Positions 2 through 22,348 are shown, numbered from the stretch's first letter. The stretch: 25,096 nucleotides of DNA from an uncultured Candidatus Peribacteria bacterium (GCA_964400435.1 CAYNUR010000002.1:1-25096); one strand, 5' to 3'. Notes: generated by a model from the letters alone, not told the origin. Made by a program: numbers and translations.

Positions 2-586
2 TTGGCATCTACAAACGGTACAGACCTTCAAGCAATTATCGACGAGATGAAGTCAGGAAAAATGCCAGGAATCGAACTGTCAGCTGTGATTAGCAATAAA
101 AAATGTTATGCTTTAGAGCGTTCAGAGGCCCAAGGATTCGAAACTTTCTTCATTGATCCAAAAGGAAAAACAAGAGAAGAATTCGATCAAGAAATGATGG
201 AGCTACTAGAAAAAAAAGAAATAGATCTTATCTGCCTCATCGGCTATATGCGAATTTTAAGTGAAAAGTTCGTGAAAAAATTCGAAAACAAAATCATTAA
301 TGTTCATCCTGCTCTAATTCCAAAATATTCTGGGAAAGAATTTTATGGTTCAAATGTTCATCAAGCTGTCTTAGATTCAGGAGACAAAGAAACTGGAATG
401 ACAATACATTTTGTTGATGAAGGAGTAGATACTGGGAAAATAATCATCCAAAAATCTTGCCCAGTAACTCCTGACGATACAATTCAAACCTTAAAAGACA
501 AAGTTCAGACCTTAGAAAAGAAGTGGTATCCAGAGGTAATTAGAATGTTTGCTAAAGGAGAAATAGATCCTAAAGCTTCTTCTTGA
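2..586 (+). CDS. purN: Phosphoribosylglycinamide (GAR) formyltransferase, 5' end truncated by the window edge
   Basis: LASTNGTDLQAII N-terminal loop, LIGYMRILS, catalytic NVHPALIP and GVDTG motifs, G+TIHFVD; first codon TTG is probably internal (Leu). Confidence 0.95.
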   Translation: MASTNGTDLQAIIDEMKSGKMPGIELSAVISNKKCYALERSEAQGFETFFIDPKGKTREEFDQEMMELLEKKEIDLICLIGYMRILSEKFVKKFENKIINVHPALIPKYSGKEFYGSNVHQAVLDSGDKETGMTIHFVDEGVDTGKIIIQKSCPVTPDDTIQTLKDKVQTLEKKWYPEVIRMFAKGEIDPKASS

Positions 587-1939: not shown

Positions 1940-3127
1940 ATGGAATTCGTTTATCGATTCAGAGCACTTCTAAAAAGTATTAAAGATTCCTGTTTTTCGC
2001 CACTAGCAAAGTTCCTTATCAGGTTTGGAGTTACCTGTAACCACATTACTCTAGTTAGTTTCACCTTTGGAATTTTAGCAGCAATTTTCCTCTCATATAG
2101 TCATCTATTATTTAGCATTTTTATTGCAGTTGCCGTTTTTTTAGATGGCCTAGATGGAGTAATGGCCAGACAAGGAAAACCAAAGGAGATAGGCTGGTTT
2201 TTAGATATGCTCAACGATCGCTTGGTAATGTTTTTCATTCTTGTACAAATCTATTTTAGCCAAAATCTAGATTTAATCACTCTTACTACTATCTCTTATG
2301 CCTTGGTAAAAGGATATTACATTTTTCAAAATACAGTCAGAAAAAAACAATATAATGCAGTTCATTTAGATTTGATTGCCTACATTTTCTTAATTTTTCA
2401 GGAATTCCAACTCGGTATATATTTCGTTTTAGCATCTTTAGCTTTTAATGTTTTGGAATTACTTATTCAAGCCTTAAAAAAGAATAAACAAAAGGCTAAA
2501 AAAGTAGTTAAAAAAGGAGTAACAGAAGTTAAGAATGAAACAACTTATGCAAATTTTATTTCACTATTGAGACCAATCTTAGCAATACTAGCTTTGTACT
2601 TTCTTAATTCACAACCTTATATTCTAGCTGGAACAATAACTATCATCATCCTTCTAGATGCTCTAGATGGTATCGTAGCTAGAAGATCAAAAAAGAAAGG
2701 AAAACATGGTGCTTTCATTGATATTATTGCTGACAGAGCTGTAGAGCTAATAATCCTATATGTTTATGCTTATTGGGGATTAATCACCTATTTATTCCCA
2801 ATAATTTTTACAGTTCGTGGCCTTTCTACAGATTTTCTTAGATTCTTAAATAGAAAGTATCCCGACATAAAATTTAAAGAACCTCTTTCTCTCGGTGGTG
2901 CAGATAATAGGTTTATTAGAGGTTTTTACGGTTTCATCAAGTTAGCTGCATTTTCGCTAATATTAATTCACCAATTATCTGGATTCTGGCTAATGGTCTT
3001 AGCTATTATCCTCAACCTTTATCGTGGTCTACCTGTAATATTTTCAAACAGATCGAAAGTGCTTTTTGCCAAATTTCTTGAAGAAAAAAAGTCCAAGAAA
3101 TCACAAAAAAAGATTCAAAATCCTTAA
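1940..3127 (+). CDS. Membrane protein with two tandem CDP-alcohol phosphatidyltransferase domains
   Basis: Two intact DxxDGxxAR(x7-8)GxxxDxxxD signatures: DGLDGVMARQGKPKEIGWFLDMLND and DALDGIVARRSKKKGKHGAFIDIIAD; each is preceded by an N-x-I-T/S motif and they are joined by a Lys-rich linker. Confidence 0.88.
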   Translation: MEFVYRFRALLKSIKDSCFSPLAKFLIRFGVTCNHITLVSFTFGILAAIFLSYSHLLFSIFIAVAVFLDGLDGVMARQGKPKEIGWFLDMLNDRLVMFFILVQIYFSQNLDLITLTTISYALVKGYYIFQNTVRKKQYNAVHLDLIAYIFLIFQEFQLGIYFVLASLAFNVLELLIQALKKNKQKAKKVVKKGVTEVKNETTYANFISLLRPILAILALYFLNSQPYILAGTITIIILLDALDGIVARRSKKKGKHGAFIDIIADRAVELIILYVYAYWGLITYLFPIIFTVRGLSTDFLRFLNRKYPDIKFKEPLSLGGADNRFIRGFYGFIKLAAFSLILIHQLSGFWLMVLAIILNLYRGLPVIFSNRSKVLFAKFLEEKKSKKSQKKIQNP

Positions 3128-4326
3128 GTGAGAACTTCCAAAAGCCTATCGTGATCAATTCCCTTCCGCACTTCAAGAGCTATTCGATCGCCATAACTCA
3201 AGCTTTCTCCATAAAGATATGAAGTAGCAGGAGTGAAACGTGTTCCTGGTGAACCCGGAATTCTCATACTCACATCGAAGACAACAAATTCCTCTTTTCC
3301 CTTATAAGAAGCCATCGCTCCCTGCAAAGCAAAAGGTCCAATAATTCCTGGATCAACTTCTTTTTTCAAAGTCTCAACAAATTTTTCCCCGGCATTAAAG
3401 GCCTTTTCTAGAATTGATTCTTTTGTCGTACAAGCAATATGTCCAGTTTCTACCATAGAAGGTTTATAGCCTGATTTTAAAAGACCCATTTGAGTCATTG
3501 CATCTAAACGTAAGAATCCATCAAGACTGGTTTGTCTTCTCGTATCAGTTCCCATAATCTCTAGTTCATCATCAATAGGGGAGTAAAAGTAATTAAAATT
3601 AATCTGAGCTCCCAAGACAAATTCTTCAATCACAGACTTATCCAAGTCTTCTTTTAATATTGTTCCATCTTTTATCATTTTTTCACTAGTATCCCAGTAT
3701 TCTTTTTCACTAGTAATAACAAAAAATGCTCTTTCATAACTTCTCTCAGCCTCATTTACTTTGATTATCAGAGGAAATCCTTCTTCACTAAAGTGTTTCT
3801 TCAATACTTCACTTACTTCCTCATCATTCATTCCACTATCTCCTGTCCGAAGAATTTTAGGAGTTCTAATTCCAGCTTTCTCCAGCAAAACATACTGATT
3901 GTTAGGGTGATCTCTTTCCTCTAATTTTACCAATTCTCTACTACCAAAAATCGGCACTTTAAAATTCTTTTCAACCTTCTCAAAATCGCAGTAAACCCAA
4001 AAATATCGATTATGAACGAAAATTGTATTCATTTCACGTAATTTCTTTTGAACATCGTCATTTACAACATCTCCAAACTTATCAACCATGATCACATCAT
4101 CAATACAACCAATTTCACCAGAAATGGAATAACCATCTTTTCTAGTTTTGTAATATTGTGAATAAGTTTTATCTCGACCTTTCTGGCAAACAGCCACCGT
4201 TTTAAAACCAAAATTTTTCGCTCCAGAACAAACATCTAATGCACTGTGACCACCTAGAACACCAATTGTTACATTTTCCATATCATAATCCGAAACTATT
4301 TTTGCAATTTCCTCCTTTGAAATCAT
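3124..4326 (-). CDS. purP: PurP-like ATP-grasp protein (archaeal FAICAR synthetase family, divergent paralogue)
   Basis: MISKEEI..Y...TIGVLGGHSALDV, VAVCQKGR, FNYFYSP..DELE, RRQTSLDGFLRL, GIIGPFALQ, RIALEVRKGI...L.EVLT match the PurP (DUF1246+DUF1297) family; symbol is family-level only. Confidence 0.85.
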   Translation of the reverse strand: MISKEEIAKIVSDYDMENVTIGVLGGHSALDVCSGAKNFGFKTVAVCQKGRDKTYSQYYKTRKDGYSISGEIGCIDDVIMVDKFGDVVNDDVQKKLREMNTIFVHNRYFWVYCDFEKVEKNFKVPIFGSRELVKLEERDHPNNQYVLLEKAGIRTPKILRTGDSGMNDEEVSEVLKKHFSEEGFPLIIKVNEAERSYERAFFVITSEKEYWDTSEKMIKDGTILKEDLDKSVIEEFVLGAQINFNYFYSPIDDELEIMGTDTRRQTSLDGFLRLDAMTQMGLLKSGYKPSMVETGHIACTTKESILEKAFNAGEKFVETLKKEVDPGIIGPFALQGAMASYKGKEEFVVFDVSMRIPGSPGTRFTPATSYLYGESLSYGDRIALEVRKGIDHDRLLEVLT

Positions 4327-4360
4327 AATTTTTTATTAAATTTTATCCCCCAAATTTTAT

Positions 4361-4903
4361 CTATAAATTTAGCAATTCTATATTTTCTTGCTGTGCTTCA
4401 ATCACTCCATTAATCAATTCATCTAACTCTATTCCCAATTCTTCAGCTCCTTGTCTCACATCTTCACGACTAACATTCGCAGCAAAAGCCTTATCTTTTA
4501 ATTTCTTCTTAACAGATTTTAGCTTCATCCCTTCAAACTTAGTTGGCCTAACTTGTGCAACAGCTACAACAAATCCAGACAATTCATCAACCGCAAATAA
4601 AGTTTTTTCCATCAAGCTTTCTCTCACAATATCAGGGTGATTTACATGTCTTTGAATTGCTTGAATAACATCTTCTTCAACATTTAATTCCCTCAAAATT
4701 TTTTCACCAGGTTTAGGATGCTCTTCAGGATATTTCTCATAATCAAAATCATGTAAAAGTCCTGTAATATACCATTTTTCACTGTCTTCACCATTCTTCT
4801 TTGCAAAATATTCCATTGATGATGCAACAGACCTACAATGTCTTCTCAAGCTCTCACTTTCTACATATTCTTGCAGAATTTTTTCTGCAGCTTCACGATT
4901 CAT
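4361..4903 (-). CDS. HD-superfamily metal-dependent phosphohydrolase (HDIG type)
   Basis: H...HD...D motif: LRRHCRSV, GLLHDFDYE, AIQRH, LFAVDELSGF; C-terminal KSVKKKLKDKAFAANVSRE typical of this small HD family. Confidence 0.85.
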   Translation of the reverse strand: MNREAAEKILQEYVESESLRRHCRSVASSMEYFAKKNGEDSEKWYITGLLHDFDYEKYPEEHPKPGEKILRELNVEEDVIQAIQRHVNHPDIVRESLMEKTLFAVDELSGFVVAVAQVRPTKFEGMKLKSVKKKLKDKAFAANVSREDVRQGAEELGIELDELINGVIEAQQENIELLNL

Positions 4904-4973
4904 GGATAATTTTTAACTTACAAAAAAAATATAACACGAACAAATCATGCTAGCGAGAATTTCAACTGCACAA

Positions 4974-5996
4974 CTAGCCTAAAACCATTTCTAATTTATC
5001 CTGTTCAATTGCTTCTTTAATATCTCTAGCAATTCTTCGTCCTGTACTCATAGGAACATCATACCTTAGCCAAGAATAAGGTGAACCATTGGTATAAGGA
5101 TTTGTTCCAGCTACAATTCTTGCTGAAATTTCAAAGATATAATAATTCAATTCAGGGTCCACAATTCCTTCTAAACAGAAAGGTCCAAACATCCCATTAT
5201 CAACAAGTTTTCTAGAAGCATCGACTACTTGCTGTCCCATCTCAAAAACAGTTGGCAAAACAGATTCTCTCAAAACAATCGGTACATTTCCAGTGATTGT
5301 ATACGTAGTTCTAATCCCCACATCAACTTGATCTTTAGCAGCGATTCTACCAATAGAATCCGCATTAGACTCATACCTCTTATCAAAGCTCATAATCTCT
5401 AATTCGTCATTCAGTCGACTATAAAAATAATGAGTATAAACTGGAACACCCACAATATATTCTTGAATCGCATAACCAGTCTCATCATCTTCAAACTCTT
5501 TGTACCTCTCATAAAATTCCTTAGTCGAATTCGCTAAGAAATATCCTTGTCCTCCACGTGCACCATGGAATTTAATAATAACAGGTCTATCAATTTCTTC
5601 AGGACTAGCAAAAACCTTAGGAAGTTTAATTCCTGCATCTAAAAGCCATTCTCTTTCTTTTGATCGATCAGATTCCCATTCCAAAATTCCCTTTGTACCA
5701 TAGTGCATAGCTTTCATATCAGTCTTAATCTTCTCAGCACCAAGATAAGCGACAAAAGAACCATGTGGAACAACTATTGCATTTTCATCAACCAGTTGTT
5801 GTTCAATAGAAAAGTAATCTTTAAATTTATCTACTTCAATAATTTTATCTGCAACACCATAGCTTGTGTAAGGCTTAGTTCTACCTTTTTCACAAATAAC
5901 AATAGTTTCAAAGCCTTCATCTTTTGCCCCCTTTAATATTTGAAGAGCGGTATGACTTCCCAGAGTTGCAATTTTAAAATCTTTTACTTTTGTCAT
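4974..5996 (-). CDS. purP: 5-formaminoimidazole-4-carboxamide ribonucleotide (FAICAR) synthetase, formate/ATP-dependent, archaeal type
   Basis: IATLGSHTALQILKGAKDEGF, PHGSFVAYLG, WESDR, IDRPVIIKFHGARGGQGYF, RYESNAD, GPFCLE, FEISARIVAGTN, MSTGRRIAR closely follow canonical PurP. Confidence 0.92.
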   Translation of the reverse strand: MTKVKDFKIATLGSHTALQILKGAKDEGFETIVICEKGRTKPYTSYGVADKIIEVDKFKDYFSIEQQLVDENAIVVPHGSFVAYLGAEKIKTDMKAMHYGTKGILEWESDRSKEREWLLDAGIKLPKVFASPEEIDRPVIIKFHGARGGQGYFLANSTKEFYERYKEFEDDETGYAIQEYIVGVPVYTHYFYSRLNDELEIMSFDKRYESNADSIGRIAAKDQVDVGIRTTYTITGNVPIVLRESVLPTVFEMGQQVVDASRKLVDNGMFGPFCLEGIVDPELNYYIFEISARIVAGTNPYTNGSPYSWLRYDVPMSTGRRIARDIKEAIEQDKLEMVLG

Positions 5997-6019
5997 ATTA
6001 AAAATAAGTACTTTTACCT

Positions 6020-6049
6020 ATCATACAAAGATTTTAACTGTTTTGTCTA
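6020..6049 (-). promoter_or_regulatory. Possible sigma70 promoter for purP
   Basis: Minus strand TAGACA-N18-TATGAT in the uppP-purP gap. Confidence 0.35.
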
Positions 6050-6056
6050 GTCTAAA

Positions 6057-6941
6057 TTAAACAAAGACACTTAACCCCAAAGCAATTAGATAAATTGAGA
6101 AAACTTTTAAACTATGTTTTTTCAAGTAGTTCATAAGGAAAAACACACTTGCAAGGCCAACTAAAAATGCAGAAATAAAGCCAATTCCTAAATTTAAGAA
6201 AGAAACACCAAGTTTACCAGTCTCTGCGACATTTATTCCCGTTAACAGTCCTGCACCAGCTAAGGCAGGAATTCCTAATAAAAAGGAAAACCTCGCAGCA
6301 GTTTCTCTCTTTATTCCTTGAAAAAGACCAGCTACAATTGTTGATCCAGATCTCGAAATTCCTGGAACTAACGCAAAAGCTTGAAATACCCCAATAAGTA
6401 AAGCTTTCCACCACTTCATTCTTCTCAATTCTGCCGGCTCAAAACCACCCGGTTGTAAATAGTCTCTTGCTGTATCAACTTTTTCTTTAACTTTAGTTTT
6501 TACAGAAGTTTTCTTATTTAATCTTTCAAAAGTAAATTCTCCCAATAAAAACAAAATTGCCAAACCAATCATCATTCCACCTACCATTTCCACTTTTCTA
6601 AAATTGCTATCAATCCAGTCTTCCATTGTTAATCCAAAAGCAACAGCTGGCACAGTTCCAATTAAAATATAACCAATCAATTTAGCATAAGGATCATTCC
6701 ATTTTGCCTTACCAGTAAAAAATTTACCAACTTCTTTAAGCATTCCCCAAATATCTTTCCAAAAATAAACTAAAATTGCTAGCAATGTCGCTAGGTGAAC
6801 CATTACATCAAAACTCTTTAAATTTTCAAAATCCAATCCCAAAAAGTCCTCCATTAAAACCAAATGTCCACTTGATGAAATAGGAAGGAACTCAGTTATT
6901 CCTTGTATAACTCCTAAAATCAATGCATCTAACCAAGTCAT
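6057..6941 (-). CDS. uppP: Undecaprenyl-diphosphate phosphatase (BacA/UppP)
   Basis: LGVIQGITEFLPISSSGHL and ALVPGISRSGSTI motifs, AARFSFLL, multiple TM helices. Confidence 0.96.
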   Translation of the reverse strand: MTWLDALILGVIQGITEFLPISSSGHLVLMEDFLGLDFENLKSFDVMVHLATLLAILVYFWKDIWGMLKEVGKFFTGKAKWNDPYAKLIGYILIGTVPAVAFGLTMEDWIDSNFRKVEMVGGMMIGLAILFLLGEFTFERLNKKTSVKTKVKEKVDTARDYLQPGGFEPAELRRMKWWKALLIGVFQAFALVPGISRSGSTIVAGLFQGIKRETAARFSFLLGIPALAGAGLLTGINVAETGKLGVSFLNLGIGFISAFLVGLASVFFLMNYLKKHSLKVFSIYLIALGLSVFV

Positions 6942-7028
6942 AATTATTACTTTTAAAATTCACAATCAAGAATACCACATGAATTTTCTAAAAAGAATTC
7001 AGCATACAGCTAAATAGCTACACCAAAC

Positions 7029-7056
7029 TTGCAAAAATGCAAATGTTATTGTATTA
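7029..7056 (+). promoter_or_regulatory. Probable sigma70 promoter for the SLH gene pair
   Basis: TTGCAA-N16-TATTAT upstream of the first SLH gene. Confidence 0.5.
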
Positions 7057-7125
7057 TAACATGAGTGCAATTCTCAATATCAGAGAAAATTGCGCCCAAA
7101 AATGAAAAGAAATAACAAAAATAAA

Positions 7126-10100
7126 ATGGAAGAACACAAGGATCCTAAACAAAAAGAAGGGACTGATCATCCACTTCACGGTTCTACTCCAGGTTCGCAG
7201 GTGAATAAAAAATCACCCGTAAAAAAATGGGGAATATTTGCTTCAGTTGCAGTTGTAATTGGAGTTGTGGCTTATGTTTTAACAGGGACACAGTTATTCC
7301 AAGGGAATATTAGTGGTCCTTTAGACCAAGCAGGTCCAGATGAAATTATGGATCAGATCTACAATGGTTTTGGTCAAAAAGACCTTAGGTTAAGCTATGA
7401 AACCCTCTCTCAAGTTCAACAAGACGAATACAAGAGTTATTATGATAGCTGGGTACAAGTTGAAGATAGACTTGTGAATGATATTCCAAATTTTGATGCG
7501 CTTGAAGTTGAATTACTCAATACTATTGCAGAAAACTATAAACAAGGTTTTGCAGCCCATCCTGATAAAATCCTAGACTTAGTTCATAGCGATTACGAAC
7601 TTACGATTCAAAATCTTATGAGTCTTTTTGATTTTGCAGTTACTGTTTATAGAGATCCAAATGTAGTTCAAGCAAACGGTGTAAATGTTGATGCATTCTT
7701 TGATAGATATAACGATCAATATTTCAATAATAGAAATGCATCTTTACAATTAAGAACCTATTTTAGAAGTGGATTTTGGGATAATGAGATGGTGACTTTC
7801 TTTGATACATATTTTGACGCAATGTATAACTATGTTGAAGCACTTGCATTTACTACAGTTTCCACAGATGACTCAACAACACCAAATACAGCAGTGATTA
7901 ACGGTGTGATTCCAGCTGCCGAGCAAGCAAGAATTCAGCAATTATTTGATGATGCAATTGCAATTCAACCACAAGGAATGGGATTAAACACACCTCCTTT
8001 TGATATTGATTTACCAATGGAAAGAGATGCGAGTCAGCCTTCAAATATTTGGTATTCACCACTAATAAAAACTCCAACTTTCCCACAAACATGGTTGGAT
8101 GATTTAGTTGCAGATATGCAAGCAAGTTATGATCAAGCAGCAAATGACAGAACAGAACAAGCATTAAGAGATTTAGCAAACCATACCAGAGAATTCGTAA
8201 ATGATGGAAGTGCATGTCACCTAATGTATAACACGGTGAATGATTTAAATAACATGCGTCCTCCAGAAGAAAGAATGGATGTTGTCCTACACGATATTTC
8301 TATACAAGAAAACAGTGGTACAAATATCAGATTAGAAGACACAGACACTAAAGCTTATTTTAAGCTATATGGTCCAGTTAACGGAACAGCAATTCCTACA
8401 ACTCCGGAAAAAGAAGTTTACCAGTACTTAGCAGATAACAATTATGTAGGAGAAGACATTATGATTTTTGCTTCTGGAGATAAAAACAGTCAAGAATCTC
8501 AAGGCCTTGAAGCCTACGAACCTACTGAAAAAATTGAAATTCAAGAAGCACAAAAAGTAATTAATTCAATCAATCAAGCAGATGACATTCAAACTCTTAA
8601 ACAATACGAAAGAGCCTGGGGAGAAGTTATTGTTGAAGGTGAATATAATTCTGGTGAGGTTCTCGGAGATGCTGATTATCAAGTCGTTAACACTTACATC
8701 CAAGAAACCAAAACACAGCAATTTAAAAAATTGATCGAAGGTTATCCAAATCTTTCCGAGTCTCAGTTAAAGGACCTTCTTACATTGATAGATGGAACAG
8801 AAGAGTATTCAACTTTAGAAGAATACAAAGAAATTCTTGATTCAAAAGCTTTCGGACAAGATGAAGTTCCTGGAGTTTACACAACGATAAACGATGCAAT
8901 AATTGATCAACAGGCAGAAGTTAAGAAAATTGAAGCAGTAAAAGTTCAAGAAAACTACTACGAATTTGAACCAGCAAACTTATACTTACAAGATTATCAA
9001 TCTCCTACAAGAGTTGAATCAAGCTTGCCTGGCTCAAACGGAAGAACAGCATATGCCCAAGAAATGAGATCACCGGATGAGGAAAATGAAGATATTCCTG
9101 GAGAAGTTGTGGATGATTCAGGAAATACACCAGTTGATAACCAAGAAACAAATGATGGAGGAAGTGCAGAGGGAACAACGGGAGAAGGATCAACAGAAGG
9201 AGGAACAAATGATGGAGGAAGCGCAGAGGGAACAACCGGAGAAGGATCAACAGAAGGAGGAACAAATGATGGAGGGAGTACAGAAGGATCAACTGGAGGA
9301 GAATCAACAGAAGGTGGAATGACAGAAGGAGGAAGCAATGATGGTTCAACTTTAGAGCAAGCAAATGGTGGACTTGTAATTACAGGAACAAACAATCCAG
9401 AAGCCACGAAAGTAGTTGCAACATCAGCTGATATTACTTTCTACTGTATAGATATCCAAGAGCAACAAGTGCCTCAAGACGGAGAGGATGGAACAGATGG
9501 ATTTAGTTGTTGGGACACAAATCAGAACGGAATGAACGATGATGCAGAAGATGTTAATCAAGATGGAGAGTGGAATACGCTAGACTGCCAAGGAGCAGAT
9601 GGTGCAGATGGGACTGATGGAGGGGATGGACAAGCATGTTGGGATACCAACTCAAACGGAGTACCTGATCCTGAAGAGGATGTAAACAATGACGGTTTAA
9701 TAGATGTTCAAGATTGTCAGGGAGCAGACGGACAAGATGGAACAGATGGATTCAGTTGTTGGGATACAAATCAGAACGGAATGAATGATGATGCAGAAGA
9801 TGTAAATCAAGATGGATTCTGGTCAATACAAGATTGTCAGGGGTCAGATGGGGAAGACGGAACAGATGGATTCAGTTGTTGGGATACAAATCAGAACGGA
9901 ATGAATGATGATGCAGAAGATGTAAATCAAGATGGATTCTGGTCAACACAAGATTGTCAGGGGTCAGATGGAGAAGATGGAGAAGACGGAGTTGACGGAC
10001 AAGATGGAGCAGACGGTCAAGACGGTATTGATGGTCAAGCATGTTGGGATGTCAACAACAATGGAACAAGAGATACAAATGAAGACACAAATGGCGACGG

Positions 10101-11061
10101 AATAGTCGATATCAACGATTGTAGAGGTCAAGATGGAAGAGATGGTTCAGGAATTGGTGGGGGAGAAATATATATTGATATTAACATCGAAGATAATTCA
10201 GTCACTGAAATCAATACAGACCGAATCGTGGATGATTATTTTGGAGGAGGAGCAATCACGAATACAGCAACAAATGAAACAGGAGATGTAAACGTAAATA
10301 ACTACGTAGAAATCATCTCTCAAGATGTGCCAGCAGGCGATCTAGTAGCAGAGATCACAAGTCCAGCAAGAAACAACACAGCACTAGATTTCTTTGAATG
10401 TTTAGATCCAGTAACACCAGTGAGTTTCACAGATATCGCAAATGCCTACTACGCCTACGAGCCAGTACAAACATCAGCAAGACTAGGGTACGAAAACCAA
10501 GCGATTACCATAGGTTACCCACAAGGAGTATCAAGAGTATTCAGAGACAAATCAAACATTACGAGAGCAGAATTGAACAAAATGGTAGCGTTTGCATCAT
10601 GTATCTATCCATACTTTGAACAAGAAGGAATCTATGACGAATTAACAAACAGATTCAATGATAACAGTGCAAATGATTGGTTCTACAGACAAGTGAATGC
10701 GTCAGCAAATGGAGGATTAATCCAAGGATATACAGACGGAACATTCAAGCCAAATCAGCCTATTACGAGAGCAGAAGCAACAAAAATCATAGTAGAAATC
10801 TACTTGAGAATATTCCCAGAGAAACAATTGGGAAGTTGTACGAACTCACCATTTAAAGATGTATTCCCAACAGAGTGGTACTGCGGATATGCAGGAACAG
10901 CCTTCAGAGAAGGGATAGTACTAGGTTCAATCAACTCACAAGGAGATCACTTATTCAGACCAAATGCATCAATAACAAGAGGAGAAGTAGCGGTAATTCT
11001 ATATAACTTCTTCATCACAACCTTACAAAATAGTTTAGAAGACACTTCTCTTTCTAACTAG
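7126..11061 (+). CDS. Large acidic surface protein A: N-terminal TM anchor, Gly/Thr/Glu spacer, five Cys-bounded DxNxDG modules with collagen-like linkers, three C-terminal SLH domains
   Basis: TM WGIFASVAVVIGVVAYVL followed by LFQG; SLH motifs ITRAELNKMV, GYTDGTFKPNQPITRAEA, FRPNASITRGEVA. ORF track starts at TTG 7090; ATG 7126 preferred because its context (AATAACAAAAATAAAATGGAAGAA) mirrors the paralogue's start at 11095. Confidence 0.85.
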   Translation: MEEHKDPKQKEGTDHPLHGSTPGSQVNKKSPVKKWGIFASVAVVIGVVAYVLTGTQLFQGNISGPLDQAGPDEIMDQIYNGFGQKDLRLSYETLSQVQQDEYKSYYDSWVQVEDRLVNDIPNFDALEVELLNTIAENYKQGFAAHPDKILDLVHSDYELTIQNLMSLFDFAVTVYRDPNVVQANGVNVDAFFDRYNDQYFNNRNASLQLRTYFRSGFWDNEMVTFFDTYFDAMYNYVEALAFTTVSTDDSTTPNTAVINGVIPAAEQARIQQLFDDAIAIQPQGMGLNTPPFDIDLPMERDASQPSNIWYSPLIKTPTFPQTWLDDLVADMQASYDQAANDRTEQALRDLANHTREFVNDGSACHLMYNTVNDLNNMRPPEERMDVVLHDISIQENSGTNIRLEDTDTKAYFKLYGPVNGTAIPTTPEKEVYQYLADNNYVGEDIMIFASGDKNSQESQGLEAYEPTEKIEIQEAQKVINSINQADDIQTLKQYERAWGEVIVEGEYNSGEVLGDADYQVVNTYIQETKTQQFKKLIEGYPNLSESQLKDLLTLIDGTEEYSTLEEYKEILDSKAFGQDEVPGVYTTINDAIIDQQAEVKKIEAVKVQENYYEFEPANLYLQDYQSPTRVESSLPGSNGRTAYAQEMRSPDEENEDIPGEVVDDSGNTPVDNQETNDGGSAEGTTGEGSTEGGTNDGGSAEGTTGEGSTEGGTNDGGSTEGSTGGESTEGGMTEGGSNDGSTLEQANGGLVITGTNNPEATKVVATSADITFYCIDIQEQQVPQDGEDGTDGFSCWDTNQNGMNDDAEDVNQDGEWNTLDCQGADGADGTDGGDGQACWDTNSNGVPDPEEDVNNDGLIDVQDCQGADGQDGTDGFSCWDTNQNGMNDDAEDVNQDGFWSIQDCQGSDGEDGTDGFSCWDTNQNGMNDDAEDVNQDGFWSTQDCQGSDGEDGEDGVDGQDGADGQDGIDGQACWDVNNNGTRDTNEDTNGDGIVDINDCRGQDGRDGSGIGGGEIYIDINIEDNSVTEINTDRIVDDYFGGGAITNTATNETGDVNVNNYVEIISQDVPAGDLVAEITSPARNNTALDFFECLDPVTPVSFTDIANAYYAYEPVQTSARLGYENQAITIGYPQGVSRVFRDKSNITRAELNKMVAFASCIYPYFEQEGIYDELTNRFNDNSANDWFYRQVNASANGGLIQGYTDGTFKPNQPITRAEATKIIVEIYLRIFPEKQLGSCTNSPFKDVFPTEWYCGYAGTAFREGIVLGSINSQGDHLFRPNASITRGEVAVILYNFFITTLQNSLEDTSLSN
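9148..9318 (+). repeat. Three tandem 57-bp coding repeats (TNDGGSAEGTTGEGSTEGG)
   Basis: Units at 9148-9204, 9205-9261 (near identical) and 9262-9318 (degenerate). Confidence 0.9.
9478..10146 (+). repeat. Five coding modules C-W-D-x-N-x-N-G...E-D-x-N-x-D-G...D-C separated by G-x-D triplets; includes a near-perfect 120-bp tandem duplication (~9739-9978)
   Basis: Lines 9781-9840 and 9901-9960 differ at one base; the repeated peptide is visible in the translation. Confidence 0.9.
10228..11052 (+). repeat. Direct repeat copy 1 (SLH-encoding 3' cassette), partner at 13585-14409
   Basis: Line-by-line comparison: identical over 10228-10958, then five synonymous mismatches to 11052; offset 3357 bp (duplicated ORFs 10398/13755 have the same offset). 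Confidence 0.95.
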
Positions 11062-11094
11062 TTAAAATAAAAAAATAAAATAACAAAAACAAAA

Positions 11095-14000
11095 ATGGAG
11101 GAAAACAAAAACAATATGCCTGAGGAAAAGGCAACTCCAGCAGAACCAATGCCAGAGATGAATTCTCCTCAGCCAGAACCGCCAAAAAAATCTAACGCAA
11201 TGAAATGGTTTATTGGTATAGCGGTGATTTTAATTCTAGGGATTAGTTCATATTTCCTAGCTACATCAGACTTATTTAGAGGTCAGTTAGTGCTACAAGG
11301 TCCAGATCCTGCAACACCTGAAGAAGAAGGAGCCGCAGATGCTTTTGAAGATCTTTACAGAAATCTATCAAATCGTGATTTTGCAGCAATACTAGAATCA
11401 CTTCCTCAAAGCCAAGATGAAGCTATTAGGACGATTCTTAAAACTCCAACAAAACTATATGAAGATCTTGAAAATCGAACTCAAGTTTCAGGTGAAATCG
11501 AAAAAATTCATGAATTTGTAGCAACGACAAATAGTGCATATGACCAGCATTATGAGAATATTCTAGTTTATTTACCTGAATCCTTCGAGATTGATGGAGA
11601 CGTTTATAATATTCAGCATATTGTTAGGCAGTTAGCTCCAGAAGGTCTAGTCGTAGATGCTCTCACTCTTTCAGCAAACGCAATAGAGTTAATTGTTTTA
11701 ACTCCTGAAGATAATTCACCAGAAATAATCAATACAATCACGAACGATTTTATTGATTTAGCTCATGCAGTAGCAAGAAATGTTCATCAGGTAAGTATTG
11801 CTGATATTGTAGATGCAGATACACAAGCTTGGGCAAATGGAGTTGCAACAGCAATTGAACAAGCTCCAGATTTCTTTGATACCGTTGCAAATGCCGATTT
11901 AATTGATAATTTAAGTTCATCAAACGACTTGGTACAGTTTGTAGTTGAAAACACAGACATAAAAGCCCATCCAATTGGTTTAACTCTTCAAGGTTTTGAA
12001 GGTGATTATTATGATGAAATCTTAACAGACCTAGGTCTGGCTGATGGAGCTACAACAGATTTTATTAAAGTAGAAAATGTTTGGATTCCGGAAGATATGC
12101 ATGCTGGGTTCAATGATGTTATCAGAGAGCTAACTTTAGCAATTGTTCAGGTTCCGGATTATCCAGCTCTTCAACAGGAATCAAACTCACTAGGTTGTGA
12201 TATTAGTCAGTACATTCCTGAGTGCAACGATTTGATCTATGAATATGACCAAAAGCTATGGGAAAGAGGCAATATTGTCGCTTCAGGAGGAGACACTACA
12301 ACAGTTGATCAAGAAATTGCTGAGATTGAAAATGATGCAAATGCAATAAGTTGTACGCTTGTTGATGCACCAGAGTACTGGAGAGAGTGTGAAGATTACT
12401 CACGTGAATATGAACAACTACGAGAACAAAGTGCAGAAATGGCAAACAATGGGCAAGATACAACTACAATAGACAACCAAATTGCCCAACTTACTGATCA
12501 GGCAAGTGCTGAGAAATGTGATCTCGGGGAGCCTCAAAAAAGAAGTTGTGAAGATATTGCTACAGAATATAGAAATGAATCTTTAGCTTCAATAGTAGAA
12601 TATATTATTGATGAAATGAATGCAGCTCCTGCAGATACAGAGTACTATCTTGAACTAGGAAATAAATTAGCTGATGAATTAATCGAGTCAGCAAAACAAT
12701 TTGAAAATACAGGTTATGCTTGCCAATATCTTGCTACATCAGCAAGTGCAGTAGACGGTTTTTTAACAGAGGCATTGGGTACAGAATACACAGATGAATT
12801 TGAATTCATTTACAACCAAAACGACTTCCAAAATGCAGATGTTGATTATGTTAATGGGCTTGAAACAGATAGTGTAGTTGCAGATAACCCAGACTATAAC
12901 GAGGTACTTCACATTACAGGTCCAATTCATGGTGAATATCAAACAGATGCTAACGGTAAGGGAATTTACATTCCAGAAGAAAATTACATTGGAGAAGATA
13001 TGATCTTAGATATTTATGCTAATCCAAATACAGATAGTGGAATCATAGCAGTTAGCTGTACTAACATTCTTCCAGAGTGTTGGGATTCAAATACGAATGG
13101 ACTTAAAGATTCTGACGAAGATTTAAATGAAGACGGAGAAGTTGATGACCTCGATTGTGAAGTTATACCAGAACCACCAGTTGATCCAGTAGTTTCATGT
13201 TATGACACTGACGGTGATGGAGTCTACGAAGTTGGAGACGAAAACAATGACGGAGTAATCGATGAAAATGACTGTGACTACGAAGAACCAACTGAACCAG
13301 AAGCAGCAGAGCCTTCTGAACCACCAGAGTTAGAATGTGAAGATATCAATAATGATGGAGTAATCGATAATACGGATTGTTTCCCTGAAGAAGTAGACAT
13401 AGCTGCATGTTGGGATCTAAACGATAATGGCCAAAGAGATGTCGCAACTGAAGATCAAAATAATGATGGAGTGGTTGATATCAGAGATTGTTCAGGAACA
13501 GGAAGTGGTTTAGGTGGAGCAGATCTATACATCAACATCAATATTGAAGATAACTCCGTAACAGAAATTAATTTAGATGATTTAGTGGATGATTATTTTG
13601 GAGGAGGAGCAATCACGAATACAGCAACAAATGAAACAGGAGATGTAAACGTAAATAACTACGTAGAAATCATCTCTCAAGATGTGCCAGCAGGCGATCT
13701 AGTAGCAGAGATCACAAGTCCAGCAAGAAACAACACAGCACTAGATTTCTTTGAATGTTTAGATCCAGTAACACCAGTGAGTTTCACAGATATCGCAAAT
13801 GCCTACTACGCCTACGAGCCAGTACAAACATCAGCAAGACTAGGGTACGAAAACCAAGCGATTACCATAGGTTACCCACAAGGAGTATCAAGAGTATTCA
13901 GAGACAAATCAAACATTACGAGAGCAGAATTGAACAAAATGGTAGCGTTTGCATCATGTATCTATCCATACTTTGAACAAGAAGGAATCTATGACGAATT

Positions 14001-14415
14001 AACAAACAGATTCAATGATAACAGTGCAAATGATTGGTTCTACAGACAAGTGAATGCGTCAGCAAATGGAGGATTAATCCAAGGATATACAGACGGAACA
14101 TTCAAGCCAAATCAGCCTATTACGAGAGCAGAAGCAACAAAAATCATAGTAGAAATCTACTTGAGAATATTCCCAGAGAAACAATTGGGAAGTTGTACGA
14201 ACTCACCATTTAAAGATGTATTCCCAACAGAGTGGTACTGCGGATATGCAGGAACAGCCTTCAGAGAAGGGATAGTACTAGGTTCAATCAACTCACAAGG
14301 AGATCACTTATTCAGGCCAAATGCATCAATAACAAGGGGAGAAGTAGCAGTAATTCTATATAACTTCTTCATCACAACCTTACAAAATAGTTTAGAAGAT
14401 ACCTCTCTTCAGTAA
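11095..14415 (+). CDS. Large acidic surface protein B, paralogue of A: N-terminal TM, helical Cys-stapled repeats, Cys-bounded DxNxDG modules with Pro/Glu linkers, three SLH domains
   Basis: TM WFIGIAVILILGISSYFL followed by LFRG; C-terminal ~275 aa essentially identical to protein A. Confidence 0.88.
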   Translation: MEENKNNMPEEKATPAEPMPEMNSPQPEPPKKSNAMKWFIGIAVILILGISSYFLATSDLFRGQLVLQGPDPATPEEEGAADAFEDLYRNLSNRDFAAILESLPQSQDEAIRTILKTPTKLYEDLENRTQVSGEIEKIHEFVATTNSAYDQHYENILVYLPESFEIDGDVYNIQHIVRQLAPEGLVVDALTLSANAIELIVLTPEDNSPEIINTITNDFIDLAHAVARNVHQVSIADIVDADTQAWANGVATAIEQAPDFFDTVANADLIDNLSSSNDLVQFVVENTDIKAHPIGLTLQGFEGDYYDEILTDLGLADGATTDFIKVENVWIPEDMHAGFNDVIRELTLAIVQVPDYPALQQESNSLGCDISQYIPECNDLIYEYDQKLWERGNIVASGGDTTTVDQEIAEIENDANAISCTLVDAPEYWRECEDYSREYEQLREQSAEMANNGQDTTTIDNQIAQLTDQASAEKCDLGEPQKRSCEDIATEYRNESLASIVEYIIDEMNAAPADTEYYLELGNKLADELIESAKQFENTGYACQYLATSASAVDGFLTEALGTEYTDEFEFIYNQNDFQNADVDYVNGLETDSVVADNPDYNEVLHITGPIHGEYQTDANGKGIYIPEENYIGEDMILDIYANPNTDSGIIAVSCTNILPECWDSNTNGLKDSDEDLNEDGEVDDLDCEVIPEPPVDPVVSCYDTDGDGVYEVGDENNDGVIDENDCDYEEPTEPEAAEPSEPPELECEDINNDGVIDNTDCFPEEVDIAACWDLNDNGQRDVATEDQNNDGVVDIRDCSGTGSGLGGADLYININIEDNSVTEINLDDLVDDYFGGGAITNTATNETGDVNVNNYVEIISQDVPAGDLVAEITSPARNNTALDFFECLDPVTPVSFTDIANAYYAYEPVQTSARLGYENQAITIGYPQGVSRVFRDKSNITRAELNKMVAFASCIYPYFEQEGIYDELTNRFNDNSANDWFYRQVNASANGGLIQGYTDGTFKPNQPITRAEATKIIVEIYLRIFPEKQLGSCTNSPFKDVFPTEWYCGYAGTAFREGIVLGSINSQGDHLFRPNASITRGEVAVILYNFFITTLQNSLEDTSLQ
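13585..14409 (+). repeat. Direct repeat copy 2 (SLH-encoding 3' cassette), partner at 10228-11052
   Basis: Same comparison as copy 1. Confidence 0.95.
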
Positions 14416-14434
14416 TCTATAAAGGAATTATAGA

Positions 14435-14464
14435 AAAAAGAGCCCTAACATTAGGGCTCTTTTT
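14435..14464. terminator. Bidirectional intrinsic terminator
   Basis: Perfect inverted repeat AAAAAGAGCCCTAA-CA-TTAGGGCTCTTTTT between the convergent SLH gene B and purH. Confidence 0.9.
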
Positions 14465-14663
14465 AATCGGAATGTAAAATGAGTTTTATTTAATCTGATA
14501 AAAAGCTATAAGTCACTCATTGAACCATCCACAACCCCCACCCTCCCTGGGGAATAAAGAAATCTTCTCAAAAAAACATTAAATTTCTTAAATTTTTCTT
14601 TAAAAAATCCAAAACAGCATAGCGCCTGTCGACCGGAGCCTTAGCGTAGGTGCAAGTGGTAGA

Positions 14664-16202
14664 CTAATGTCTAAAGTATCTCCTCCCAGAAAACACCATC
14701 GCTAATCCTAACTCGTTAGCTCTTTTTATTACTTCGTCATCTCTAATAGATCCACCTGGTTGAATAATTGAGGTGACACCAAGCTCAGCAGCTTGTTCAA
14801 TTCCATCAGCAAATGGGAAAAATGCATCTGAAGCCATCACAGATCCTGGAATATTCTCTCCTCCCTTTCTGCCAGCAAGCCATACACTATCAACTCTCGA
14901 CATTTGACCCGCACCAATTCCTGTAACAGTTGTACCTTTTGCCATAACAATTGCATTTGATTTGACGTGTTTAGCTACTACGTTGGCAAATAACATAGAT
15001 TTTATTTCTTCTTCACTCGGTTTTTTCTCAGTAACAACTTTTAGATCGCTTTCACTTAACTTATAAGTGTCCTTAGTTTGAATCAAAATTCCACCAGCAA
15101 CTTTTTTGATATCAGTCTTCAAATGATCCAGTTTGAGTTCTCCAGTCCTTAGAATTCTTAAATTCTTTCTTTTCATTAACCTTTCTAGTGCTTTTTTCTC
15201 AAATGAAGGTGCAATAATTATCTCAACAAACATTTTTTCATCATTCATATAGTCAACAATTGCTTCATTTACTTCACGATTGACAGCAATTACACACCCA
15301 AATGCAGATAAAGAATCCACCTTATGCCCAGCTTTAAAAGCTTCTTCAATCGTAGAAGCAGTTGCCACTCCACAAGGGTTATTATGTTTAATAAAAACAG
15401 CTGCAGGCTCCTTGAATTCCTTAGCTAGTTCAAGTGCACTATCTCCATCAACTAAATTATTGAAAGACAATTGTTTACCATGTAACACTTCAGAATTAGT
15501 AATATTAGAGTCATGATTGTCAGGATTTCTAAAGAAAGCAGCTTTTTGATGAGGGTTTTCACCGTATCTTAGGCTCGCAACTTTTTCATAATGTAGACTC
15601 AAAAGTTCAGGTTCACCAAGACTCTCTCGCAAATAGTTTTCTATCATTGAGTCGTACCTTGCGGTGAGCGTAAATGCTTTTCTAGCAAGTTTCTTTCTTG
15701 TTTCAACTGATGTTTCACCATTTTTAGCAATCTCCTTCAAAACCAGTTCGTAGTCATTAGGATCTGTTAGAACAGTGACATGTGCAAAATTCTTTGCTGC
15801 ACTTCTAACCATGCTTGGTCCTCCAATGTCAATGTTTTCAATCGCTTCTTCCTCAGTTACTCCATCTTTTTTAATAGTTTCTTCAAATGGATAAAGGTTA
15901 ACTACAACCATATCAATCATTTGAACGTCATTCTGTTCAGCTGCACCCATATGCGATTGATCATTTCTCAAAGCCAAAATTCCTCCGTGAACCTTTGGAT
16001 GTAAAGTTTTAACTCTTCCTCCCATCATTTCTGGAAATCCAGTGTAGTCTGCAACATCAACCACATTTACTCCAGCCTCACGAATTTTATTTGCAGTACC
16101 ACCTGTTGAGAGAATTTCAATCCCTAAACTATCTATTTTTTTTGCAAGTTCAATAATCCCAGACTTATCTGAGACACTTATTAAAGCACGTTTAATCGCC
16201 AT
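14664..16202 (-). CDS. purH: Bifunctional AICAR transformylase / IMP cyclohydrolase
   Basis: RALISVSDK, GGRVKTLHP, IENIDIGGPSM, LRYGENPHQ, catalytic IKHNNPCG, GAGQMSRVDS, ASDAFFPF, QPGGSIRD, RYFRH. Confidence 0.98.
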   Translation of the reverse strand: MAIKRALISVSDKSGIIELAKKIDSLGIEILSTGGTANKIREAGVNVVDVADYTGFPEMMGGRVKTLHPKVHGGILALRNDQSHMGAAEQNDVQMIDMVVVNLYPFEETIKKDGVTEEEAIENIDIGGPSMVRSAAKNFAHVTVLTDPNDYELVLKEIAKNGETSVETRKKLARKAFTLTARYDSMIENYLRESLGEPELLSLHYEKVASLRYGENPHQKAAFFRNPDNHDSNITNSEVLHGKQLSFNNLVDGDSALELAKEFKEPAAVFIKHNNPCGVATASTIEEAFKAGHKVDSLSAFGCVIAVNREVNEAIVDYMNDEKMFVEIIIAPSFEKKALERLMKRKNLRILRTGELKLDHLKTDIKKVAGGILIQTKDTYKLSESDLKVVTEKKPSEEEIKSMLFANVVAKHVKSNAIVMAKGTTVTGIGAGQMSRVDSVWLAGRKGGENIPGSVMASDAFFPFADGIEQAAELGVTSIIQPGGSIRDDEVIKRANELGLAMVFSGRRYFRH

Positions 16203-18362: not shown

Positions 18363-18926
18363 ATGAATATTAAAGATTCTATGAGCTACGAGCTCATGCT
18401 CCTGTATTTCCCAGATTTAGGAGAAAAAGGTCAGAAAGAAGCACTAGATGAAGCAAGAAACCTTCTTACTTCCAACGGTGCAGAGATCACACATGAAGAC
18501 ATCTGGGGACTTCGTGATCTAGCTTACAGAATTAAAAAACAAGACCAAGGTTATTATGCGGTCTTGAATTTTAACTTGGAAAAAGGTGAAAACCTTCCAG
18601 AGATTGTAGAATCTCTAAATCTTGATCAGTCTATTATTAGACACCTTTTGATTAAGACTCCAAAAAACTACCAACTTACAACTTTAGCTGAATACCAAGC
18701 TGCAGCTGCAGAAGAGGAAGCTGAAGAAGAAAAAAAACAGGCTGAAAAAAGAAAATCTTCTCCAAAGCCAAAAAAGAAAGAAGTAAAAAAAGAAAAGCCA
18801 AAATCTTCACCAAAAAAAGAAGATCAGTCTGAAAAATCTGAAAAGAAAGAAGAATCAAAAGGAAAATTAGAAGAAGTTGATAAAAAGCTAAAAAGCATTA
18901 TCAATGATCCTGATATCAGTATTTAA
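18363..18926 (+). CDS. rpsF: 30S ribosomal protein S6 with long charged C-terminal extension
   Basis: YELMLL, WGLRDLAYRIKK..QGYYAVLNF, IIRHLLIK; position upstream of ssb-rpsR. Confidence 0.95.
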   Translation: MNIKDSMSYELMLLYFPDLGEKGQKEALDEARNLLTSNGAEITHEDIWGLRDLAYRIKKQDQGYYAVLNFNLEKGENLPEIVESLNLDQSIIRHLLIKTPKNYQLTTLAEYQAAAAEEEAEEEKKQAEKRKSSPKPKKKEVKKEKPKSSPKKEDQSEKSEKKEESKGKLEEVDKKLKSIINDPDISI

Positions 18927-18944
18927 CTAACTTAATCAAAGAAA

Positions 18945-19373
18945 ATGAGATCAGTAAATAAAGTTATTCTAATTGGAAATCTGACAAGAGATCCTGTAAT
19001 GAAAACAACTCAAAGTGGTCAAACAATTACAACTTTTGGAATTGCTACTAACCGAGAATGGGTAACTAGTGATAGCGACCATAAGAAATCAACTGAATTT
19101 CACGAAATCGTAGCATGGGCTAAACTTGCTGAAATCTGTAATAAATACCTTAAAAAAGGAAAATTAGTATATATTGAAGGTTACATCAAAAGAAGAAGCT
19201 GGGACAGTGAAGAAGGGGAAAAAAGATATAGAACTGAAATCGTTATGCAAGATATGATCATGCTTAACAAAAAAGGTTCTGGATCTGATGACATGGAATA
19301 TGATTCAGAAATGGATGATGATTCAATGTCTCATGATGATTCTTCTGAAGAAGGTGATGAAAACCTATTTTAA
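18945..19373 (+). CDS. ssb: Single-stranded DNA-binding protein
   Basis: VNKVILIGNLTRDP, TEFHEIVAWAKLAE, KGKLVYIEG, acidic tail ending in LF. Confidence 0.97.
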   Translation: MRSVNKVILIGNLTRDPVMKTTQSGQTITTFGIATNREWVTSDSDHKKSTEFHEIVAWAKLAEICNKYLKKGKLVYIEGYIKRRSWDSEEGEKRYRTEIVMQDMIMLNKKGSGSDDMEYDSEMDDDSMSHDDSSEEGDENLF

Positions 19374-19392
19374 ATTTTAACTTCAACTAATC

Positions 19393-19611
19393 ATGCCAAC
19401 ATACAAAGGAAGAAAGTGTTATTTCACTCAAAACGATATTGAATATATCGATTACAAAAATATCAAACTATTGAAGAGATTCATTTCTCAATATAAAAAG
19501 ATTGTTCCAAAATACTACAGCGGAACAAGTCTAAAACACCAAAAGAGACTGGCAAAAGCCGTAAAAAACGCTAGATATATGGGGTTACTTCCATACACTA
19601 CTGGACAGTAA
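19393..19611 (+). CDS. rpsR: 30S ribosomal protein S18
   Basis: IDYKNIKLLKRFIS...KIVP...GT..KHQKRLAKAVKNARYMGLLPY. Confidence 0.96.
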   Translation: MPTYKGRKCYFTQNDIEYIDYKNIKLLKRFISQYKKIVPKYYSGTSLKHQKRLAKAVKNARYMGLLPYTTGQ

Positions 19612-20309: not shown

Positions 20310-20310
20310 A

Positions 20311-21945: not shown

Positions 21946-21946
21946 A

Positions 21947-22327: not shown

Positions 22328-22348
22328 AAAAGCAAAATAAAAACCAAA

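Follow-up and report, generated by a model that had tools for sequence, protein, structure and literature searches.

We analysed a 25,096-nucleotide stretch of DNA from an uncultured Candidatus Peribacteria bacterium (GCA_964400435.1, CAYNUR010000002.1:1-25096), referred to here as the window, which carries purN, purH and two genes of the PurP family of ATP-grasp proteins, PurP-A and PurP-B. The initial annotation of this DNA proposed that folate-dependent and folate-independent purine formylation run here in parallel. Coordinates are positions in the window; read in the standard bacterial code (table 11), 18 principal open reading frames (ORFs) of at least 80 amino acids tile it (Table 1). 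The purine genes match their families far beyond chance, with E values from 1e-52 to 1e-217.

The purH product comprises the Pfam domains MGS and AICARFT_IMPCHas and exceeds the thresholds of both NCBIfam equivalogs (NF002049, 723 bits, cut-off 402; TIGR00355, 668 bits, cut-off 528). The motifs VKTLHP (64), NLYPF (102), IDIGG (124), RSAAKN (133) and KHNNP (272) are all present; PurH therefore keeps its catalytic Lys-His pair as well as the four residues (Lys, Tyr, Asp and Lys) of the cyclohydrolase site. By these measures purH is intact and orthodox, in agreement with the initial annotation. Its relatives tell the same story: full-length PurH ORFs keep the Lys-His pair and DIGG in 33 of 33 cases, the AICARFT half is in most loci at least as conserved as the IMPCH half (59–76% against 55–72% identity to the window), and no locus from the candidate phyla radiation (CPR) shows a shortened purH except at contig ends.

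PurN is recognized by Pfam Formyl_trans_N (E = 2.8e-52) and by the TIGR00639 equivalog (189 bits, cut-off 150), and it has the motifs NVHP and VDEGVDTG with the catalytic Asn, His and Asp. Its presence was thus correctly called, whereas its description as an intact gene within positions 3124–16202 has to be amended: it lies elsewhere and its reading frame runs off the start of the window, so that integrity is not statable for the first few codons. Residue 3 of the window protein corresponds to residue 8 of Escherichia coli PurN, the profile match begins at position 6, and the listed TTG start is an artefact. PurN is the only glycinamide ribonucleotide (GAR) transformylase seen in the window. 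Neither purO, which the initial annotation also did not see, nor purT has a family match among the 18 principal ORFs; with purH present and no purO match, the locus does not correspond to the archaeal replacement module of PurP with PurO.

Both PurP proteins contain DUF1246 and DUF1297 (PF06849 and PF06973) at full length, with E values of 1.4e-44 and 1.2e-69 for PurP-A and 1.9e-40 and 4.7e-58 for PurP-B. The best match of PurP-A in the PDB is 2r84 (PF1517; E = 5e-117), and it also matches 2r7k (MJ0136 of Methanocaldococcus jannaschii; E = 1e-107), to which PurP-B aligns with E = 6e-64. The presence of two PurP-family ATP-grasp genes, as initially reported, is borne out. According to Brown et al. 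2011 (PMC3261824), clusters Ia and Ib of this family have Asn258 (MJ0136 numbering) and a (K/R)GG(K/R)G loop, and cluster II always has His258 and a loop that is two residues longer and lacks those glycines. We placed the window proteins in an alignment of 50 PurP-A and 54 PurP-B sequences from bacteria, together with 22 and 29, respectively, from archaea. PurP-A has Asn258 in the context ITGNVP and a P-loop of standard length, RGGQG, in which the three glycines are kept and the second basic residue is replaced by Gln; it retains His27, Ser94, Lys156, GG..G, Glu199, Asn258, Ser266, Glu310 and Arg314. PurP-B has His258 in the context ETGHIA and Tyr in place of Ser94, and its P-loop is replaced by NEAERSYERAFF, an instance of the consensus EAxR[GS]YERAFF, which is two residues longer than the P-loop. 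Judged by these residues, PurP-A is a cluster Ib protein (‘PurP II’ in the nomenclature of Zhang et al. and Cruz et al.) and PurP-B a cluster II protein (‘PurP III’), and the two are not duplicates of each other.

The features that distinguish PurP-B are fixed across its relatives. All 54 bacterial sequences have His258, as do 28 of the 29 from archaea, and His27, Lys156, Glu199, Ser266, Asp310 and Arg314 are invariant in all 54 and 29. The formyl contacts His27 and Arg314, the phosphate contact Ser266, Lys156 and Glu199 are common to both paralogues and invariant, and PurP-B adds an invariant signature of its own (Tyr94, R-x-YERA, His258 and Asp310). This combination suggests that PurP-B is an enzyme or subunit under constraint whose ligand site has changed, and not a decaying copy; its ligand may be other than AICAR (5-aminoimidazole-4-carboxamide ribonucleotide). 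Lineage-specific insertions occur in PurP-B near residues 60–73 and 161–181. We considered PurP-B as a PurT-like GAR formylase and rejected this assignment: archaeal relatives have purN and the PurP pair in one operon, and the phyletic pattern of Brown et al. does not fit it.

The pair proved to be widespread in one bacterial lineage. The 120 best database relatives of PurP-B (63–77% identity) all come from sources labelled Gracilibacteria, Peregrinibacteria or Patescibacteria or from unnamed metagenomes. A scan of one genome per species recovered 51 CPR loci (52–75% identity) and 29 archaeal-type loci (54–62% identity); 28 of the latter are labelled as Woesearchaeota, Nanoarchaeota, ‘Methanosarcinales’, Methanomicrobia, Methanobacteriota or Thermococci metagenome-assembled genomes (MAGs) and one only as ‘bacterium’. 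The window itself, at about 35% GC, belongs to a low-GC member of the Peregrinibacteria/Peribacteria lineage that uses the standard code. When the window proteins were compared by tblastn with 82 related loci, 53 of them from CPR bacteria, a conserved Peregrinibacteria/Peribacteria gene order emerged: purH–uppP–PurP-A–(HD)–PurP-B–GlmU-like...purN. In 52 of the 53 CPR loci the gene just upstream of PurP-B, on the same strand, is PurP-A, and 22 of the 29 archaeal loci also have the two side by side in this order. Upstream sequence of 6 kb or more is available for 35 CPR loci; an AICARFT domain occurs there in 34 of them, the full set of two PurH domains in 32, and purH shares the strand of the pair in 32. 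Downstream of the pair, the GlmU-like gene is present in 24 of 27 CPR loci, and 20 of the 27 with enough sequence have purN within 10 kb of PurP-B. In two relatives (L001 and L002) the cluster is contiguous, with a gap between purH and uppP of only 3–10 bp.

Conservation of sequence accompanies that of gene order. Across 50–54 CPR genomes, 128 of 340 columns of PurP-A and 132 of 400 columns of PurP-B are at least 95% identical, and mean pairwise distances are 0.38 for PurP-A, 0.46 for PurP-B and 0.46 for AICARFT, compared with 0.70 for the GlmU-like neighbour. These low distances, together with the correlation of the distance matrices (r = 0.54–0.78), fit strong purifying selection on PurP-A, PurP-B and PurH and their vertical inheritance. 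The idea that the PurP genes are functionless, decaying remnants of a horizontal transfer, to which their scores below the equivalog cut-offs and the otherwise archaeal character of the family (PMC6486802) might lend some colour, is effectively refuted by this conservation, by their intact reading frames, by their slower evolution relative to neighbouring genes and by the persistence of the pair order.

The archaeal loci place the pair within purine biosynthesis in a different way. There, the two genes are mostly adjacent in the CPR order, no purH lies within 10 kb and the GlmU-like gene was not found near the pair. One locus (L049, 1–11128) encodes purD, a fusion of 5-formyl-tetrahydrofolate cyclo-ligase with FolD, purN, purE, purSL, purQ, purC, PurP-A and PurP-B; another (L028, 3880–20556) encodes purA, PurP-A, PurP-B, purF, purD, glyA, folD and purN. 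Since these archaeal purine operons also encode folate enzymes, coexistence of the PurP pair with a folate-dependent PurN is the norm for this clade. We rooted a neighbour-joining tree on the paralogues, with a sample skewed towards the 80 closest relatives. In it the PurP-A sequences of bacteria are monophyletic and lie beside DPANN sequences, and the PurP-B half is without resolution. The nearest relatives of the CPR pair thus appear to be DPANN-type MAGs. MAGs labelled ‘Methanosarcinales’ are intermixed in the tree with Woesearchaeota and Nanoarchaeota, and some of these labels may be unreliable. The most likely history is a single ancient transfer of a two-gene cassette from archaea to CPR bacteria, followed by vertical inheritance in a conserved neighbourhood; we infer the direction and the donor from the breadth of the family, which spans four archaeal phyla and in Bacteria is so far seen only here.

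Several known systems resemble this arrangement in part. MJ0136, a cluster Ia protein, has the same fold and belongs to the same family, and its formyl-, phosphate- and Mg-contact residues are kept in PurP-A; it uses formate and ATP instead of 10-formyl-tetrahydrofolate (10-formyl-THF). MJ0136, however, is a single gene product of proven activity that pairs with PurO and replaces PurH, whereas the window has two divergent paralogues and a complete PurH. The general statement in the initial annotation that PurP usually takes the place of PurH and is paired with PurO applies to PurP I; among archaea with PurP II/III, purH is present as well in 10 operational taxonomic units (OTUs), and 37 lack both purH and purO (Table 1 of PMC6486802). 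In Archaeoglobus fulgidus the product of the PurP Ib/II pair is presumed to be closed to inosine monophosphate (IMP) by a stand-alone PurH-type cyclohydrolase domain (PurH2/PurJ) (PMC6486802, PMC3261824). This is the division of labour that the initial annotation proposed, but A. fulgidus lacks the transformylase domain and folates, whereas the transformylase domain of the window PurH is kept and conserved. The closest parallel is with Methanosarcinales (and Thermoplasmata), which have purN, full-length purH, PurP of cluster Ib and PurP of cluster II as in the window, an ‘apparent redundancy’ at AICAR formylation in a folate user in the words of Brown et al. (PMC3261824). The hybrid configuration is consequently not new as such; what differs is that the host of the window is a CPR bacterium and that its PurP pair and purH lie together in one cluster, which is conserved across the lineage.

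A further precedent comes from a different step of the pathway. E. coli formylates GAR both with PurN, a 10-formyl-THF-dependent transferase, and with PurT, an ATP-grasp ligase that uses formate and ATP, and both activities are proven. The dual-donor logic is the one proposed here for step 9; the step and the ATP-grasp family are different, and the window has no purT match.

A complete relative of the same CPR lineage, Ca. Peribacter riflensis, provides genomic context. Its gene table lists two adjacent purP genes (K06863; Anantharaman et al. 2016, PMC4736985 supplement 2), as well as purF, D, N, L, Q, M, C, B and H, folD, glyA, folA, def and ribBA (PMC4736985). Of the genes whose survey the initial annotation recommended, folD, glyA and folA are thus present; fhs, purO and purT are not listed, nor are pflD and purU, and the word ‘formate’ occurs nowhere in the table. 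Folate biosynthesis genes were not identified in this organism, which, unlike most other CPR lineages, is reported to be able to make nucleotides (Anantharaman et al. 2016, PMC4736985); the PurP pair in the lineage is consistent with that report. The pair is not discussed in the passages of the main text of that paper that are returned by term searches. As a side observation, purE and purK are not named in the table even though the paper describes the nucleotide pathways as ‘essentially complete’ (PMC4736985), and the aminoimidazole ribonucleotide carboxylase step may be unannotated or missing. The Ca. P. riflensis genome differs from the window in base composition (about 58% GC, per the genome name, against about 35%).

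We propose that PurP-A and PurP-B act jointly, probably as one hetero-oligomeric ATP-grasp enzyme, and that together they would formylate AICAR with formate and ATP to give FAICAR (5-formamidoimidazole-4-carboxamide ribonucleotide). The cyclohydrolase domain of the neighbouring PurH would then close FAICAR to IMP. The 10-formyl-THF-dependent transformylase domain of PurH would remain functional, and step 9 would accordingly draw on two one-carbon donors, with step 3, catalysed by PurN, remaining folate-dependent. We assign a probability of roughly 55% to this reading of the pair as a formate- and ATP-dependent AICAR formylase that works in parallel with the folate-dependent transformylase of PurH. 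Because step 3 is folate-dependent through PurN, such an arrangement would spare folate or salvage formate, and the pathway as a whole would not be folate-independent; the suggestion that it permits IMP synthesis when folates are unavailable is contradicted by PurN being the sole GAR transformylase seen, with purT absent from both the window and the Ca. P. riflensis table. Formate is released endogenously by peptide deformylase (Def) and by riboflavin synthesis (RibBA). The formate for the pair would come from these reactions or from outside the cell; the fermentative source initially suggested finds no counterpart in the Ca. P. riflensis table, with its lack of fhs, pflD and any mention of formate.

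Gene neighbourhoods link the pair with the last part of purine synthesis, for it is located beside purH in CPR bacteria and after purC in archaeal operons. Phyletic patterns in archaea point in the same direction. PurP II and PurP III occur one-to-one in 61 archaeal OTUs, with 61 of the 62 OTUs that have PurP III also having a PurP II partner (PMC6486802). The pair is the only candidate for step 9 in 37 archaeal OTUs, accompanies a cyclohydrolase domain alone in 4 (PMC6486802), and occurs with purH in 10 (PMC6486802). Extracts of Sulfolobus solfataricus incorporate formate in the conversion of 5-aminoimidazole-4-carboxamide ribotide (ZMP) to IMP (PMC3261824), and a II/III heterohexamer was proposed by Cruz et al. 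2019 (PMC6486802). PF1517 of Pyrococcus furiosus, a cluster Ib protein, binds ATP and AICAR although it is inactive (PMC3261824, PMC6486802).

A number of observations weigh against this proposal. FAICAR synthetase activity has been demonstrated only for the cluster Ia protein MJ0136 (PMC3261824, PMC6486802). P. furiosus PF1517 (Ib) and PF0421 (II) showed no such activity in vitro (PMC3261824, PMC6486802), and no PurP II or PurP III protein has been reported with it (PMC3261824, PMC6486802); our literature search for newer biochemistry of PurP II/III found none. Parallel AICAR formylation with ring closure by PurH, as initially proposed, is therefore upheld by gene content, synteny and selection but not by the biochemistry of the P. 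furiosus homologues. Neither window protein reaches the NCBIfam equivalogs for formate–phosphoribosylaminoimidazolecarboxamide ligase (442 bits against 580 for PurP-A; 275 against 556 for PurP-B); as both fall under every equivalog cut-off, they are family members outside the curated iso-functional thresholds. PurP-B is altered at the contact to the AICAR carboxamide (Asn258 to His) and at the 5′-phosphate contact (Ser94 to Tyr) and has no glycine-rich loop, and the basic P-loop residues of PurP-A vary within the CPR clade. About 325 kb separate purH from the PurP pair in Ca. P. riflensis, where the two are thus not neighbours. A mirror-tree comparison gave r = 0.69 for PurP-A and PurP-B against 0.54–0.78 with PurH and the GlmU-like gene as controls and thus no specific signal of co-evolution of the two, an outcome that speaks neither for nor against a heteromer. 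Scanning the complete window against Rfam, with E values up to 1 allowed, gave zero matches, including to the ZTP/pfl, THF and purine riboswitches, so that no such element connects the cluster with folate or purine status.

The most serious alternative, which we nevertheless consider unlikely, is that the Ib/II pair carries out another ATP-grasp ligation in or near purine metabolism, with a different substrate or a different formyl or acyl donor, and that PurH performs both last steps without redundancy. The inactivity of the P. furiosus proteins (PMC3261824, PMC6486802) and the scores of both window proteins under the equivalog cut-offs would be expected on this account, as would the invariant, family-specific changes of PurP-B at substrate contacts (Tyr94, His258 and the YERA loop) and the full, conserved PurH in the informative CPR loci. 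Zhang et al. similarly suggested that PurP II takes its formyl group from another source and that PurP III has a distinct activity or none. The account sits poorly, however, with the 37 archaeal OTUs that have otherwise complete pathways and only the II/III pair for step 9 (PMC6486802), with the invariance in both paralogues of the residues that contact the formyl group (His27 and Arg314) and the phosphate (Ser266), and with the archaeal locus in which the pair ends a pur operon, directly after purC.

A second alternative runs the PurH transformylase in the opposite sense: the PurP pair would make FAICAR, and the reversible transformylase of PurH would move its formyl group to THF and regenerate AICAR, the net result being a formate–THF ligase that feeds PurN and Fmt. 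The equilibrium of the transformylase reaction reportedly favours AICAR and 10-formyl-THF, according to kinetics from the Benkovic laboratory, which counts in favour of such a shunt. The linkage of purH, the PurP pair and purN is tight and persistent, and the annotation of Ca. P. riflensis, without fhs or an enzyme named for formate, includes the formate-releasing Def and RibBA. FAICAR is known to revert to AICAR (PMC6486802). Were it true, the shunt would replace the missing formate–THF ligase by recycling endogenous formate into 10-formyl-THF, and it would give the enigmatic PurP II/III pair a role in folate-using organisms. We regard it as improbable, as serine can serve GlyA and FolD of Ca. 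P. riflensis as a source of 10-formyl-THF, FAICAR would be drawn off to IMP by the fused cyclohydrolase domain, and the closest archaeal loci have folD and purN with no purH within 10 kb.

Harder still to credit is a situation like that of Archaeoglobus, in which PurH is kept only as a cyclohydrolase, its transformylase is inactive or idle, and the PurP pair is the sole AICAR formylase. The 4 archaeal OTUs with PurP II/III and the cyclohydrolase domain alone (PMC6486802) set a precedent, and the lack of identified folate biosynthesis in Ca. P. riflensis is in keeping with it. The behaviour of PurH in the CPR loci argues otherwise: all 33 full-length ORFs retain the Lys-His pair, the AICARFT half is in most loci at least as conserved as the IMPCH half, and shortened genes appear only at contig ends. 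In addition, use of formyl-THF is evident from PurN, FolD and GlyA.

The gene combination, the idea of a hybrid pathway and the question of what PurP II/III do are all known already from archaea. What has been little noticed is the conserved bacterial occurrence of a supposed archaeal signature: PurP was stated to be confined to Archaea, with none in 1,266 bacterial genomes (Cruz et al. 2019, PMC6486802), and our literature search found no paper combining purP with CPR terms. The PurP II/III pair is a stable, vertically inherited part of purine metabolism across a CPR lineage, beside purH, and it adds a probable archaea-to-CPR transfer that affects core metabolism. Its main value may lie in making the function of PurP II/III, a question since 2008, experimentally tractable. 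The low-GC bacterial versions are probably mesophilic and have a standard PurH next to them; expression and complementation tests in E. coli should be easier with them than with the proteins from hyperthermophiles that failed in vitro.

Table 1. Genes of the window, with their positions, strands and assignments
Gene	Position	Strand	Assignment and remarks
purN	2–586	+	GAR transformylase, 10-formyl-THF dependent; 5′ end cut by the window start
GlmU-like gene, archaeal type	570–1877	−	Best match TIGR03992 Arch_glmU
CDP-alcohol phosphatidyltransferase gene	1940–3127	+	Two domains, 395 amino acids
PurP-B	3124–4326	−	400 amino acids; cluster II (‘PurP III’) PurP-family ATP-grasp protein
HD/HDIG-domain phosphohydrolase gene	4361–4903	−	180 amino acids; between both PurP genes
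PurP-A	4974–5996	−	340 amino acids; cluster Ib (‘PurP II’); candidate formate/ATP-dependent AICAR formylase (FAICAR synthetase)
uppP	6057–6941	−	Undecaprenyl-diphosphatase; BacA E = 7e-83; TIGR00753 226 bits, cut-off 217.5
SLH-domain giant surface protein genes (two)	7090–11061 and 11095–14415	+	1323 and 1106 amino acids
purH	14664–16202	−	512 amino acids; bifunctional AICAR transformylase/IMP cyclohydrolase
yidD; M23/LysM peptidase gene			Remaining window genes besides the purine cluster
rpsF-ssb-rpsR operon	18363–19611	+	
Four ORFs without Pfam matches	19755–24709	+	184, 544, 126 and 786 amino acids

The genes interspersed with the purine cluster vary in their constancy. Only 8 of the 53 related CPR loci, the window not counted, encode the HD protein (Pfam HD, E = 1.3e-10; TIGR00277 HDIG) at the position separating the two PurP genes, with 62–75% identity in five of these and about 30–34% in L012–L014. 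It has no relative in the PDB by sequence, and we rejected it as a constant functional partner of the pair on both grounds, treating it as an accessory gene. uppP, which has no obvious link to purines, mostly sits between purH and PurP-A in CPR loci. In the window, uppP and purH lie on either side of the two paralogous SLH genes, which are read from the opposite strand; their C-terminal ~500 amino acids are 72% identical, and their GC content reaches 0.44, against about 0.34 elsewhere. SLH-like genes occur at the same spot in four related loci (L017, L020, L023 and L075), which suggests that it is a recurrent insertion site for variable surface proteins.

Two neighbours of the PurP pair appear to have an archaeal flavour of their own. 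The GlmU-like protein, a bifunctional sugar-1-phosphate nucleotidylyltransferase/acetyltransferase, scores 265 bits against TIGR03992 Arch_glmU, under the cut-off of 292, and the top NCBIfam match of the CDP-alcohol phosphatidyltransferase is archaetidylinositol phosphate synthase, likewise below cut-off. The 3′ ends of purN and the GlmU-like gene overlap convergently by 17 bp (570–586), and those of the CDP-alcohol transferase gene and PurP-B overlap by 4 bp (3124–3127); both overlaps indicate very tight gene packing. In the surroundings of the cluster, scans for promoters and terminators yielded no more matches than shuffled sequence did, and operon boundaries are not callable from them. The window contains no tRNAs.

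TGA is reassigned in the sister group Gracilibacteria, where UGA is read as Gly. We rejected such an alternative code for the window, because table 11 gives full-length genes with no in-frame TGA. TAA or TAG ends 17 of the 18 main genes and TGA only purN (584–586); the code is thus standard, with TGA strongly depleted. Beyond the purine cluster, the ribosomal protein S6 encoded by rpsF has a long C-terminal tail, with 187 amino acids in the window and 225–263 in L001 and L002. The same two relatives have Pfam-less ORFs of similar size at the position that matches the four window ORFs after rpsR.

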